The notes beneath the pieces were generated by a model, which was not told the origin of the DNA, did no database searches, and saw nothing but the letters and a program-made list of their open reading frames with translations. Shown piece after piece: positions 8,250 through 17,423 of a stretch of DNA of 59,943 nucleotides. Within the stretch, counting starts at the first letter, position 1. Every line of letters begins with the position of its first letter. A program made the translations under genes and the position numbers. Source of the stretch: an uncultured Gammaproteobacteria bacterium (GTDB taxonomy: Bacteria; Patescibacteriota; Microgenomatia; UBA12405); NCBI GenBank assembly GCA_964396145.1, contig CAYNEE010000002.1, positions 1 through 59,943 of the forward strand. The letters run 5' to 3'.

Positions 8250-8282
8250 AAAAAAATTCCCCTCCTTTAATCAAAGGAGGGG
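8250..8282 (-). terminator. Rho-independent terminator or attenuator downstream of the major pilin gene
   Basis: The minus strand reads CCCCTCCTTT-GATT-AAAGGAGGGG, a perfect 10-bp stem, followed by AATTTTTTT. It lies between the pilin stop (8308) and the pilD start (8234). It is also copy 1 of the G-rich hairpin repeat family. Confidence 0.7.
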
Positions 8283-8307
8283 ATTAAGGGGTAGATTTAT
8301 TTTCCCT

Positions 8308-13006: not shown

Positions 13007-13633
13007 ATGCCGCACTTTCCTTCAAGCCTTATTATCAGTCCTTCCCCCCAATCTTCACGTCAAAAAGCACTAGATATTTTTTCCGAATTAAATCATCTCC
13101 CAGACAATAATCCCGACCTTTTAGAACTGACGGAATACACAATTGAGGCCGTCCGTAAACTTAAAAAATTTCTCTCTCAAAAACCCTATAACCATGAAAG
13201 CAAAATTATTTTCATCCCCGAAGCCCAGGAACTTAATTTAGAATCACAAAACACTCTTTTGAAAACTCTTGAAGATCCTGGAAAAGATAATTATATTATC
13301 CTCACCTCCACCCGTCCCGCCCGACTGCTACCAACCATTATTTCCCGTTGCCATCAAATCAAAATTACTCCTGCCGTTTCCTCAAAAGAAGTCAAGCCTA
13401 TCAAAACCAGCGGTTACCCTAAAAAAGATTTAGCTCTAGCCGCTAGCCTCTACACCGACAAAAGTGAAATCAAAGCTTTACTCTTGAACCAGGTTAACGC
13501 CTGGCAGGAGGAACTGACCAAAAATCCCACTCCAAAAACCGCCCAAACCCTCTCTGCTCTGATTCACTCTCTGGAGCTTATCGAAGCCAATGTCGACCCC
13601 AAAAGCGCCCTAGATTGGTTTCTACTGTCCTAA
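13007..13633 (+). CDS. holB: Short DNA polymerase III delta-prime-like clamp-loader subunit
   Basis: 208 aa with the motifs QNTLLKTLEDP and LPTIISRC (sensor 1 and SRC). It lacks a Walker A motif. Confidence 0.6.
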   Translation: MPHFPSSLIISPSPQSSRQKALDIFSELNHLPDNNPDLLELTEYTIEAVRKLKKFLSQKPYNHESKIIFIPEAQELNLESQNTLLKTLEDPGKDNYIILTSTRPARLLPTIISRCHQIKITPAVSSKEVKPIKTSGYPKKDLALAASLYTDKSEIKALLLNQVNAWQEELTKNPTPKTAQTLSALIHSLELIEANVDPKSALDWFLLS

Positions 13634-13998
13634 AAACCCTTCCCCGTCCCTTCCCTTGACAGGGCAGGGTGAATAAACTGTAAAATTTTCTTTTTTACCT
13701 CATCTAAGCTGCCCAAAACTTCTTCATTTGTAAACCTCAAGGTTTCAATTCCACAAACTTGTAAAAATTTATCTCTATACCTATCTTTTTCTTTAACTCT
13801 TACATGATAACCACCGTCAATTTCAATAGCCAGACACAAAGAGGCACAATAAAAATCTAATATAAATCTATCTAATGCCTTTTGACGAATAAACTTGACT
13901 CCTAATTGTTTTCGCCTCAACAACCGATTCCAAATAATTTTTTCGGCCTCCGTTTCACTCCGACGATGACGTCTCGATTCTCCTGTTAATTCTTCCAA
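13630..13998 (-). CDS. DUF559 (Vsr-like endonuclease fold) domain protein
   Basis: 122 aa. The sequence EAEKIIWNRLLRRKQLGVKFIRQKALDRFILDFYC...AIEIDGGYH resembles the DUF559 family pattern. Its last 12 codons are encoded by one copy of the hairpin repeat. Confidence 0.7.
   Translation of the reverse strand: MEELTGESRRHRRSETEAEKIIWNRLLRRKQLGVKFIRQKALDRFILDFYCASLCLAIEIDGGYHVRVKEKDRYRDKFLQVCGIETLRFTNEEVLGSLDEVKKKILQFIHPALSREGTGKGF
13636..13672 (-). repeat. G-rich hairpin repeat, copy 2 (minus orientation)
   Basis: The reverse complement reads CACCCTGCCCT-GTCA-AGGGAAGGG-ACGGGGAAGGGTT. Confidence 0.7.
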
Positions 13999-14077
13999 AT
14001 ATCGTACATGATATTTTTTGTCTTTAATTCTACTACAACTCCATTTTTCATTGTATTTTAAATTACATTAAATAAAA

Positions 14078-14120
14078 CCCCTTGCCCTGTCAAGGGAAAG
14101 GGGTAGGGGATAGGGTTTCT
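14078..14120 (+). repeat. G-rich hairpin repeat, copy 3 (plus orientation)
   Basis: CCCCTTGCCCT-GTCA-AGGGAAAGGGG-TAGGGGATAGGGTTT: an 11-bp stem with one mismatch, followed by a G-rich tail. Confidence 0.7.
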
Positions 14121-14265
14121 CACTCTCCAACTCCTTGTCAAAGAGAGACACGGCCCCGCGGAGGTGTGACCACTAAGGGAGATTGAGAAAAGAGGGGATA
14201 AGGTTTAAAACAATTCCCGCATTTTCCCCTCACACTTTTTAAAAAACTGATATAATAGGGCCACC

Positions 14266-15396
14266 ATGTTTTCTCCGATATTTACCATTAATAACCAGAT
14301 TTTAAAAAACATCGGTACTCTTGAGGCTGCCAAGGCTGTCATTGATGAGGCACCTCTGATTCCTGCTTACGAAAAACAGTTTCAGCAAGAAGCTGTCATC
14401 CGCACCGTCCATTATGGTACCCGGATTGAAGGTAACGATCTCACTTATCAGGATGTGGCAAAGCTTGTCGAAGGCCGTGAAGTTACTGCTGCCGACCGGG
14501 ATATTCAGGAAGTTATCAATTACAGAAACGTCATTAACTACCTTGAGGAAATTTGGGCCACCTATGACGCCGGATTACCGTTACCAGAAGAAAAATACAA
14601 AGAGGGTATTGACCCTAAAAACAGGCTATTTTTTTACAGTGAAACCATTATCAAAAAGATTCACGAGTTGACCACTGTCAAAATTATCGACGAAGCCGAC
14701 GTCGGTAAATACCGCCGCCAACAGGTCGTTTTAAAAAATACTAAAACCGGCGAAATTGCTCATCGACCCCCTCCGGCTATCGAAGTACCCTATTTGATTA
14801 CCGACTTTGTCGCCTGGTTAAACGACTCCAAATCCAGAGAAATTCATCCGGCTATTAGAGCCGCCATTACTCAATATGTTTTAGTCGCCATCCACCCTTT
14901 TGTTGAAGGAAATGGCCGTGTTTCCCGGGCTTTTGGAATATTACCTCTCTATGTCGAGGGTTATGACATCCGCCGTCTTTTTTCCATTGAAGAATATTTT
15001 GATAGAAACGCCGAAACTTATTACAATACCCTCCAGTCCACCCACGAAAAAAATAGTGACATTTTTGAACGTGACCTGACCGACTGGGTGACCTATTACA
15101 CGGAAGTCTTGGCCATCGAGCTTTCTCGGGTCAAAGACAAAGTCCAGACTCTCTCCCGGGACCTAAAATTCAAACAAAAACTTGGCGGCAAGCAAGTTCA
15201 TTTAACCGAAAGACAAATAAAATTAGTCGAATACATGCAGCAATTTGGCGGCTTACGCATGCCCGATGCCAAATCTCTTTTACCTATGGTTAGTGACGAC
15301 ACCATCTGGCGTGACCTCAAAAAACTTATTGACGATAAGGTCGTCCAAAAACGCGGCTCCACCAAGGGTGCTTATTACTGTCTTAGCAATGTTTAA
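14266..15396 (+). CDS. Fic family protein (AMPylase-type), with a Fic_N-like motif and a C-terminal wHTH-like region
   Basis: The Fic motif HPFVEGNGRVSRA is present (HxFx[D/E]GNGRxxR). An upstream TRIEGN segment resembles the inhibitory motif. A TATAAT box lies at 14249-14254. Confidence 0.9.
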   Translation: MFSPIFTINNQILKNIGTLEAAKAVIDEAPLIPAYEKQFQQEAVIRTVHYGTRIEGNDLTYQDVAKLVEGREVTAADRDIQEVINYRNVINYLEEIWATYDAGLPLPEEKYKEGIDPKNRLFFYSETIIKKIHELTTVKIIDEADVGKYRRQQVVLKNTKTGEIAHRPPPAIEVPYLITDFVAWLNDSKSREIHPAIRAAITQYVLVAIHPFVEGNGRVSRAFGILPLYVEGYDIRRLFSIEEYFDRNAETYYNTLQSTHEKNSDIFERDLTDWVTYYTEVLAIELSRVKDKVQTLSRDLKFKQKLGGKQVHLTERQIKLVEYMQQFGGLRMPDAKSLLPMVSDDTIWRDLKKLIDDKVVQKRGSTKGAYYCLSNV

Positions 15397-15476: not shown

Positions 15477-17423
15477 ATGTACTCTCTTTCCGACTTTGAC
15501 CTGGAAACTCTCTCCCCCCAAAAGCTTGGCGAAATTTTAGTCGATGCCAAAAAAGCCTACTATACCACCGGTCGACCCCTCATGGATGACCATACCTACG
15601 ATACCCTAGAAGCTGTCTTAAAGAAAAAATCACCCTACCATCGGCTCTTTTCCAAAGTCGGTCACGATAATTTCGACACCGGCTGGGAGAAAAAGAGTCA
15701 TTCTATACCCATGGGTTCCCAAAACAAAGTCAGCACCTACAAAGATCTCATCCACTATTTTGAATTAAAAAACAAATCTTCCCCCTTTCTTCAAAGGGGG
15801 ACTAGAGGGGGATTTTTGGTCCAACCTAAATGTGACGGCATCTCTTTGGAAATCAGATATGAAAACGGTCATCTGCTGGATGCCATTACCCGGGGTGACG
15901 GCCACACCGGTGATGTCATTACCCAGAATGTCGTCAAAATGAAACAAGTAGTTTTAACCACCGCCAAAAAATTCAACGGTTCGGTCCGCTGCGAAATCCT
16001 CGTCACCAAAAAAGACTTTGTTGAGTTAAACAAATTGGTAAAAAATGAGGCAGGGCTTTACTCCAACCCCCGTAACGCCGCCTCCGGCCTCTCCCAACGT
16101 CTCGACGGTCTTTATTCTGAATTTTGTACTTTATATGCTACTGATATTTCTGGAAATTTTTCTACCGAGTCAGAAAAAATTTCTCTTCTAAAAAACCTCG
16201 GCTTCACCTCCGTTGAATCACATCTCTGTCAAAGTTTTGAAGACATCGAAAAAATTTATCAGAATTTTTTACGCCGGGATAGGGGAGTCTATCCCTATGA
16301 CATCGACGGCCTGGTCGTCAAAATCAATAATCTTGACATTGCCACGAGTCTTGGACAAAAAAATGGTCGCCCCAAATACCAGGTTGCCTACAAGTTTCCC
16401 GCCGATTCTAACCAAAGTGTCATTAAAAACATCACCTGGCAGGTTGGCCCCCTGGGTTCCATCACTCCGGTAGCCGAAGTTGAACCGGTCGAGATTTCCG
16501 GAGCCATTATCAACTTTGCCTCTCTTGGTAATTATGACTTAGTCCTCAAAAAAAACCTAAATACTGGTGATATCATTGAAATCTCCCGTCGTGGCGATGT
16601 CATTCCCCATATTGAAAAAGTCATTACCAAAGTCAATGCTGGCACCACCCCCATTCCTACCCATTGCCCTGCCTGTAAGACCCCACTTCTTAAAGAAGAC
16701 AAATTTCTCCGTTGTCCAAACGGCCATCACTGCTTGCCTCAAATTTTAGGATCACTTCGGCTTTTTTGCGACAAGCTCAACATCCTTGGCCTTTCCGACA
16801 AGACTATCGAAAAGCTCTATCACTCCGGCAAACTAAAAAAACCCGGCGATTTTTACAAATTAAAAGTTGAAGATATCGCCAATCTCGACAATCTGGGAGA
16901 AAAATCAGCCAAAAATGTTCTCCATCAAATTGCCTCTAAAAAAACCCTCAGTCTTAAAGAGCTTTTTACCGCTGCCTCTATCCCTGATTTCTCAGCAGCC
17001 AGAATACAACAACTCATCACTGCCGGTTTTAACACCCCCGAAAAACTATTAGACATTACCCTAAACGACATTCTCTCCCAAAAAGGTTTTCAAAAAACTT
17101 TAGCCCAAAAAATAATTAATGGTATAAATTTTAGGAAAGAATGGATTATATCGATACTTATCAATACGTCTTTAATTACTCCTAAATCCCACAAAGGAAC
17201 TTTGTCCGGTCTGACTTTTGCCATTACCGGCACTCTCTCCCGGTCCCGTAACTCAGTCATCAAAGAGATTGAAAATGCGGGTGGCAAATTTCACTCCGCC
17301 GTCAGTAAAAACACCTCTTATCTAATTACCAATGACACCACCACTAATTCTTCTAAATTAACTGACGCCCAAAAAAATGGAGTTAAAATTATCAACGAAA
17401 ATGATTTTCAAAAATTACTCTGA
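15477..17423 (+). CDS. ligA: NAD-dependent DNA ligase
   Basis: It has the adenylation motif KCDGISLE (KxDG), TRGDG, OB and Zn-finger regions (CPAC...C..G.HC), HhH motifs and a C-terminal BRCT. The start is moved to ATG 15477 because the track's TTG at 15456 lies inside a TATAAT box (15465-15470). Confidence 0.9.
   Translation: MYSLSDFDLETLSPQKLGEILVDAKKAYYTTGRPLMDDHTYDTLEAVLKKKSPYHRLFSKVGHDNFDTGWEKKSHSIPMGSQNKVSTYKDLIHYFELKNKSSPFLQRGTRGGFLVQPKCDGISLEIRYENGHLLDAITRGDGHTGDVITQNVVKMKQVVLTTAKKFNGSVRCEILVTKKDFVELNKLVKNEAGLYSNPRNAASGLSQRLDGLYSEFCTLYATDISGNFSTESEKISLLKNLGFTSVESHLCQSFEDIEKIYQNFLRRDRGVYPYDIDGLVVKINNLDIATSLGQKNGRPKYQVAYKFPADSNQSVIKNITWQVGPLGSITPVAEVEPVEISGAIINFASLGNYDLVLKKNLNTGDIIEISRRGDVIPHIEKVITKVNAGTTPIPTHCPACKTPLLKEDKFLRCPNGHHCLPQILGSLRLFCDKLNILGLSDKTIEKLYHSGKLKKPGDFYKLKVEDIANLDNLGEKSAKNVLHQIASKKTLSLKELFTAASIPDFSAARIQQLITAGFNTPEKLLDITLNDILSQKGFQKTLAQKIINGINFRKEWIISILINTSLITPKSHKGTLSGLTFAITGTLSRSRNSVIKEIENAGGKFHSAVSKNTSYLITNDTTTNSSKLTDAQKNGVKIINENDFQKLL
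15781..15817 (+). repeat. G-rich hairpin repeat, copy 4, in frame inside ligA
   Basis: CCCCCTTT-CTTC-AAAGGGGG-ACTAGAGGGGGATTTTT. The perfect 8-bp hairpin encodes SPFLQRGTRGGF just upstream of the KxDG motif. Confidence 0.65.

Follow-up and report, generated by a model that had tools for sequence, protein, structure and literature searches.

A small gene for a DUF559-family nuclease and the two inverted, structured repeats that enclose it form one discrete, recurrent unit of 0.45-0.55 kb, whose gain, loss, swapping and decay among related genomes affect the unit as a whole. We describe this cassette from the window, a stretch of 59,943 nucleotides that makes up contig C2 of the genome referred to here as G000 (628 kb in 21 contigs, approximately 40% GC), whose relatives carry the label Candidatus Shapirobacteria (candidate phyla radiation). 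The best explanation, to which we give an even chance of being correct, is a DUF559 cassette ended by inverted triplex-type repeats, with a nuclease that would act on those ends and so maintain or propagate the cassette. That the cassette comes and goes between related genomes suggests that the DUF559 family could be the hitherto unrecognized partner of a bacterial repeat class that has long gone unexplained.

The DUF559 gene and its locus

The DUF559 gene lies between holB and a Fic gene, its stop overlapping that of holB by 3 nt (Table 1). The open reading frame matches the Pfam family DUF559 (PF04480) with E=1e-28 and 99.9 bits, against a gathering cut-off of 20.6, over model positions 3-108 of 109, while its other Pfam matches are weaker and restriction-endonuclease-like only. 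By sequence, the closest solved structure is PDB 3HRL (E=1.5e-23), an uncharacterised 'endonuclease-like protein'. Residues D48, E59, D61 and H65, which make up the D..E-x-D..H core, are invariant in 22 sequences including that of the window. A search of the G000 genome returned this single DUF559 gene. Relative to its 140-aa orthologue in the related genome G015, the assembly sequence of the window carries a 1-nt deletion in a T-run at ~14010-14019, within the N-terminal 18 codons. This deletion shifts the native ATG (14051) into another frame, so that the native start is lost, but the Pfam domain is still open from the TTG.

The initial annotation, made from the sequence of the window alone, had placed the DUF559 reading frame of 122 codons between inverted repeats of ~40 nt that share an exact 16-mer, and had proposed that the 3′ copy supplies the last codons and the stop. 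All of this stands, with repeat lengths of ~35-40 nt. The 16-mer occurs once on each side, in inverted orientation, and the gene-distal repeat codes for the final 13 DUF559 codons (HPALSREGTGKGF), with the stop held in its T-run. A decayed solo repeat adjoins the cassette on the Fic side and is missing from the orthologous spacer in G015.

Table 1. Coordinates of the cassette, its neighbors and further repeats in the window
Feature	Position	Strand	Remark
Family-B solo repeat between prepilin peptidase and pilin genes	8258-8297	+	
holB (DNA_pol3_delta2)	13007-13633	+	One side of the DUF559 ORF
DUF559 nuclease ORF (Vsr-like PD-(D/E)XK)	13630-13998	-	122 aa counted from the TTG start
Gene-distal terminal repeat, CCCTGCCCT gtca AGGGAAGGG acg GGGAAGGGT	13636-13669	-	Three-block motif, triplex-type
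Exact 16-mer TGCCCTGTCAAGGGAA	13651-13666	-	Elsewhere in the window only at 14083-14098
Native N-terminus remnant (MKNGVVVELKTKN...)	13986-14051	-	Starts at the ATG that relatives use; frame broken
Gene-proximal terminal repeat, CCCCTTGCCCT gtca AGGGAAAGGGG ta GGGGATAGGGT	14078-14116	+	Inverted relative to the gene-distal repeat
Exact 16-mer, second copy	14083-14098	+	
Decayed solo repeat, V3-like, ..CTCCTT gtca AAGAGAGA (27-nt linker) AAGGGAGATT	14123-14185	+	By-eye comparison with V3 copies
Fic upstream block (TTCCGCATTTTCCCCTCA...TATAAT)	14214-14265	+	Conserved genus-wide; right-hand edge of the inserted material
Fic gene	14266-15396	+	Other side of the DUF559 ORF
Family-B solo repeat in ligA	15779-15814	+	In frame, peptide SSPFLQRGTRGGF, five residues before the catalytic KxDG lysine

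Terminal repeats have a three-block layout

Each repeat runs from a pyrimidine-rich arm through a 4-nt GTCA loop into the complementary purine arm, usually with one central mismatch, followed by a linker of 1-4 nt, a mirror copy of the purine arm and a T-run. Several variants have a nested mini-hairpin of 14-28 nt in place of the short linker. The initial annotation had described a hairpin repeat, and a hairpin with a G-rich tail is indeed present; it is, however, no plain hairpin, since the tail forms a third block that mirrors the G-arm. The mirror blocks of the two window copies score 9/9 and 10/11. In most copies the mirror match is perfect or near-perfect, and most cases beat 500 tail shuffles (p<=0.02). 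Among the variants that flank DUF559 genes the mirror block covaries with the hairpin, AGGGAAGGG being followed by GGGAAGGGT, AAGAGGGG by GGGGAGAT and AGGGGAGG by GGAGGGGT.

Repeats were counted by a scan for C-rich hairpins together with a finder for the three-block layout, which was controlled on reversed sequence. In its strict form the finder gave 8 matches in G000 and 39 on the 949-kb contig C1 of a related genome (G019:C1), with 0 matches in the reversed-sequence control in both cases. An nhmmer search of the 628-kb G000 genome with a repeat profile returned exactly 9 copies, which we call family A (E 1e-11 to 4e-8).

Repeats of the BoxC/PIT/TM type, purine-motif repeats with an intrastrand-triplex layout, have been known since the 1990s and amount to thousands of copies in hundreds of genomes; we know of no function or partner for them. 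In TM repeats, a loop of 3-6 nt joins a C-rich stem of ~9 nt to a G-rich stem, and after another, short loop comes a further G-rich block that could pair as a third strand; one stem mismatch is allowed, and the repeats are dispersed at variable loci (PMC4666352). The three-block layout, the single stem mismatch and the dispersal at variable loci are shared between the BoxC/PIT/TMECO repeats and those described here. Unlike them, the window copies (CCCTGCCCT..AGGGAAGGG..GGGAAGGGT and CCCCTTGCCCT..) do not, in a by-eye comparison, fit the literal TMECO consensus CCCTCNCCC N3-6 GGGNGAGGG N3 GGGNGAGGG; the loop is usually GTCA and the second loop is often a nested mini-hairpin. Further differences are the host, a member of the candidate phyla radiation, the many copies translated in frame, and the DUF559 gene between two copies. 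On sequence grounds, we classify the repeats as triplex-class by layout, and the window copies as belonging to the BoxC/PIT/TMECO layout class and not to the TMECO sequence family.

The loop of the gene-proximal repeat reads TTGACA on the gene strand (14093-14088), and the repeat may contribute this sequence to the gene as a -35 box. As a canonical promoter the repeat is unsupported: TAATGT, 17 nt after TTGACA, is a 3/6 match to a -10 box, and the promoter scan was silent. Holder et al. (2015, PMC4666352) report that PIT elements acted neither as promoters nor as terminators in E. coli.

The cassette recurs in related genomes

The relatives sampled were 24 other genomes of the same family and 16 genomes from sister families of the order. 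DUF559 genes are present in 20 of the 24 family genomes, with 1-3 copies each, and in none of the 16 sister-family genomes. In the 20 genomes that carry the gene, inverted repeat pairs bracket ~35 of the 39 DUF559 loci, and a DUF559 gene that lacks such repeats is not the rule. The arms match each other at any one locus but vary from locus to locus, which gives variants V1-V6 and others. The start codon is set 25-60 nt inward from one repeat, and the C-terminus usually enters the other. Intact genes of relatives encode 130-150 aa with D, E-x-D and H invariant, whereas several other copies have decayed through stops, truncations or an internal deletion.

The site occupied in the window is polymorphic. 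The order pilB-holB-Fic-ligA is kept across the genus. Of 23 congeneric genomes, 5 have a cassette in the holB-Fic spacer, with three variants among them: V1 in G000 and G015, V2 in G022 and, decayed, in G013, and a third variant in G012. In 15 genomes the spacer is without DUF559 and measures 62-177 bp, the shortest being scarcely more than the conserved Fic promoter block; these are the empty sites for which the initial annotation had proposed looking. G016 has a repeat-repeat doublet without a gene, tails outward, G011 has one solo repeat, and the remaining DUF559-less spacers partly hold unrelated repeat families. Short doublets elsewhere in the genus have the (+,-) order of cassette ends in four cases and the (-,+) order in zero. 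Between the close relatives G013 and G015, the flanks are identical up to the junctions on both sides and the cassettes differ (DUF559 proteins 49% identical). Of the old V1 repeat, G013 keeps the purine half only, cut within the loop (GTCA/AGGG). The spacer of G021 carries an unrelated insert of ~930 bp with a long minus-strand ORF and without DUF559.

Inverted repeats could in principle let the enclosed segment flip, as in programmed inversions. A 2023 survey (PMC9881135) lists 'DUF559 domain-containing protein', without comment, as enriched among predicted inversion targets (odds ratio 14.3), and in the relatives the gene is found on either strand relative to GC skew (18 vs 7). That enrichment is, however, expected from flanking inverted repeats alone, no recombinase is associated with the cassette, arms of 35-40 nt with structured ends are short for inversion, and flipping would detach the gene from nothing of consequence. 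We regard an invertible switch as very improbable.

The association extends beyond the family. Of 80 DUF559 loci sampled across many phyla, 53 have a three-block repeat with its tail outward within ~250 nt; the sample includes some 'Gammaproteobacteria' records that are mislabelled Shapirobacteria-like contigs. Repeat density in this sample is ~1.8 per kb near DUF559 vs 0.11 per kb per strand farther out. Transfer across phyla, which near-identical repeats in 'Gammaproteobacteria' records could have indicated, is ruled out by Shapirobacteria-like neighbor genes and a GC content of 32-34%. In two such records, CAZCFJ010000016.1 and CAYSME010000012.1 ('uncultured Gammaproteobacteria', 32-34% GC), the neighbor genes are 56-74% identical to those of G000, and both are probably mislabelled bins.

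One possible objection is that DUF559 is only a passenger at a repeat hot spot. The repeats would then be spread by host processes (replication slippage, recombination, structural instability), and the nuclease would have its job elsewhere, for example in mismatch or restriction-type repair. The gene would merely sit between repeats that mark unstable spacers or serve as handy expression signals. Solo repeats do far outnumber cassettes, also in genomes without DUF559, and the holB-Fic spacer does collect unrelated repeat families; Holder et al. (PMC4666352), in the main survey of TM repeats, tie the motifs to local genome instability and report no mobility genes near them and no associated enzyme. 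Such a passenger would not be expected to have, at nearly every locus, a matched inverted pair at fixed distances, nor arms that covary and are swapped together with the gene. No other gene bracketed by such repeats was seen in G000, and the enrichment around DUF559 holds across phyla. We therefore consider the passenger reading rather unlikely.

Selection on the cassette and its age

The cassettes of G000 and G015 are orthologous, and between them the DUF559 gene has dN/dS = 0.149/1.145 = 0.13. The cassette dS of 1.15 compares with 1.24 for holB and 1.70 for Fic. With synonymous sites near saturation, the two end repeats have changed at 2 of 79 nt. Gene and ends are both under purifying selection. 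A solo repeat read in frame in the mtaB-like gene (see below) has changed at 2 of 38 nt in the same pair of genomes, both changes being non-synonymous. Together with the 2 of 79 changes in the end repeats at dS ~1.1, this indicates that the repeats are constrained as DNA and not as peptide.

Judging from this divergence, the window cassette is old and has been inherited vertically since the split of G000 and G015 (dS ~1.1). Since it has been at the holB-Fic site from before that split, it is not highly mobile. The proposal of a miniature selfish element, made in the initial annotation, can accordingly be kept only in part: the cassette is a discrete recurrent unit with presence/absence and swap, but the window copy is old, and no target-site duplication is visible at the holB-Fic or mtaB-like sites, where the empty sites are too diverged or remodelled.

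Another reading is that the gene is domesticated. DUF559 could be a host structure-specific nuclease that clears folded triplex repeats or processes them, for example where forks stall, and sits between repeats for autoregulation, being neither selfish nor mobile. Purifying selection, the single copy and the one site held since the G000/G015 split agree with this, and the strong bias in how solo repeats are oriented relative to GC skew suggests that they interact with replication. A host function is harder to reconcile with the patchy distribution of the gene (0-3 per genome, with 4 of the 24 family members and all 16 sister-family genomes lacking it), with the many decayed copies, and with close relatives that carry different cassettes at the same site. 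We judge domestication to be unlikely.

Solo copies and their relation to the gene

Solo copies number 12 in G000: seven of family A, beyond the pair at the cassette, and five of a sister family B, which has the layout of family A and a different sequence. The initial annotation had assigned the solo copies of the window, including that in ligA, to the same repeat as the cassette ends; this does not hold, as the copies at 15779-15814 and 8258-8297 belong to family B. Seven of the 12 solos are read in frame within genes. Besides the copy in ligA, these are in miaA (peptide PAPSREGLGEGF), a GT4 glycosyltransferase (RPVKGGAGGGF), a PMT_2 membrane glycosyltransferase (NPPPSPSLDRAG, on the opposite strand), a protein of unknown function (PALSREGTEKGF) and a radical-SAM mtaB-like gene, which has two copies, one from each family. 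Because these seven copies lie in frame within coding sequences, the repeats are not ordinary terminators, and such terminators or chance are ruled out as sources of a family that recurs, covaries and occurs within genes. Translation of the repeat consensus leaves 5 of 6 reading frames open, for which reason the repeat is tolerated within genes.

Orthologues of the solo-bearing genes show presence or absence at exactly these loops. The ligA loop has a repeat in about half of the congeners, with differing variants, and none in the rest. The mtaB-like gene carries a repeat at site 2 in G000 and G015 but not in G013, and at site 1 in G000 only. Two surface loops of the mtaB-like protein are insertion hot spots: depending on the genome, they have been struck by at least three repeat families that are unrelated to one another (insert peptides include ..VIASEARQS.., ..RHSRKSGNP.. 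and ..CRDVINHVST..).

Hairpins of this type with a TTGACA loop occur at 2-38 per family genome vs 0-3 for the reversed pattern; in the sister families, the pattern finds AT-rich, non-hairpin matches only. V3 solos peak in G021 and G019 and V2 solos in G006, G023 and G018, all of which carry the matching DUF559, although these genomes are related and hence not independent samples. A strict rule that the repeat goes with its gene fails, leaving a trend: G007 has 16 such hairpins without DUF559, and V4 is almost exclusively a DUF559 flank, with no solos in the genomes that carry it. A few such hairpins are also found in G011, G014 and G017, and the family-B solos of G000 are without a cognate DUF559 in that genome. 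The initial annotation had suggested MITE-like or footprint derivatives of the cassette, and gene-less doublets and solos do exist. Given the solos in G007 and the near-confinement of V4 to DUF559 flanks, we can only infer that solos might be derivatives moved by the nuclease.

A candidate role for the nuclease and comparison with known systems

DUF559 is a very large family for which, to our knowledge, no function has been established. In the mechanism that we favor, the encoded nuclease would recognize the folded end repeats, as hairpin or triplex in single-stranded DNA, and would nick there. Nicking would maintain or propagate the cassette and perhaps solo copies in trans. The gene-proximal repeat may add a -35 box, and the gene-distal repeat gives the C-terminus and stop. 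Recognition by the nuclease of its own repeats could as readily prove wrong as right. A full-text literature search for DUF559 returned no description of flanking repeats or mobility.

The proposed partnership resembles that of REP/RAYT, with an unrelated enzyme. In REP/REPIN-RAYT systems (REPtrons), a single nuclease-type gene is flanked by inverted structured repeats that are also scattered as singlets and doublets; RAYT is an HUH/Y1 transposase and a single, vertically kept gene. As in REP/RAYT, the gene described here is flanked by inverted copies of a genome-dispersed repeat. In contrast to it, the window enzyme is PD-(D/E)XK and Vsr-like with no HUH/Y1 Pfam match, the repeats are triplex-type, and several DUF559 cassette variants per genus are gained, lost and swapped. 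Homing endonucleases of the Vsr-like (EDxHD) type, I-Bth0305I among them, are encoded by small, free-standing, selfish genes that are patchy in distribution and often decayed. The DUF559 gene shares with them the fold superfamily, the small free-standing gene, the patchy distribution and the frequent decay, whereas it has no intron or intein, has inverted structured ends, and is known here from presence/absence and swap.

Other mobile or repetitive elements share single features. Rickettsia palindromic elements (RPEs) are 100-150 nt long, lie in frame in housekeeping genes and are kept in the protein. The solo repeats of the DUF559 type are likewise read in frame in conserved proteins that have orthologues without them, but they measure 35-45 nt, follow the triplex layout, show a strong strand bias and come with a candidate partner nuclease. 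IS200/IS605-type single-strand transposons resemble the cassette in having hairpin ends and a preferred orientation relative to replication. DUF559 is an unrelated enzyme, however, and neither the non-inverted subterminal hairpins nor the defined target tetranucleotides of those transposons were seen in the cassette. With transposons that have terminal inverted repeats and with MITEs, the cassette shares the terminal inverted repeats.

A wider version of the mechanism would make DUF559 nucleases the missing enzymatic partners of BoxC/PIT/TM repeats across bacteria. Each lineage would nick its own folded repeat in single-stranded DNA at the fork, propagating a 0.5-kb cassette and strand-locked solos, including translated copies in essential proteins. 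We put this forward tentatively and think it doubtful in such generality. If true, the specific, covarying and selected pairing would give DUF559 and the repeats a testable role in the structure-specific nicking of triplex or hairpin DNA. The pairing would be a second nuclease-repeat partnership beside REP/RAYT, mechanistically unrelated to it, and would explain the presence of short structured repeats in frame within essential genes of minimal genomes.

Orientation of repeats along the chromosome

In all 12 solo copies of G000, the G-rich strand coincides with the strand that GC skew shows to be C-rich. On G019:C1, 33 of 33 solos are oriented alike, and the sole copies facing the other way form the far ends of two DUF559 cassettes. 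At scattered loci in other genomes the bias is 22 vs 10, and an absolute strand lock is thus borne out only in part. All contigs of G000 have a strong, uniform GC skew (|0.1-0.38|). On the 949-kb G019:C1, skew is positive in almost every 20-kb bin and its sign never changes, while the three-block repeats crowd into 459-947 kb. The constant sign and this concentration point either to very asymmetric replication or to a scaffolding artefact. In G000, a family-A and a family-B repeat lie co-oriented in the dnaA-rnpA spacer, the presumed origin region (G000:C8:21205-21650).
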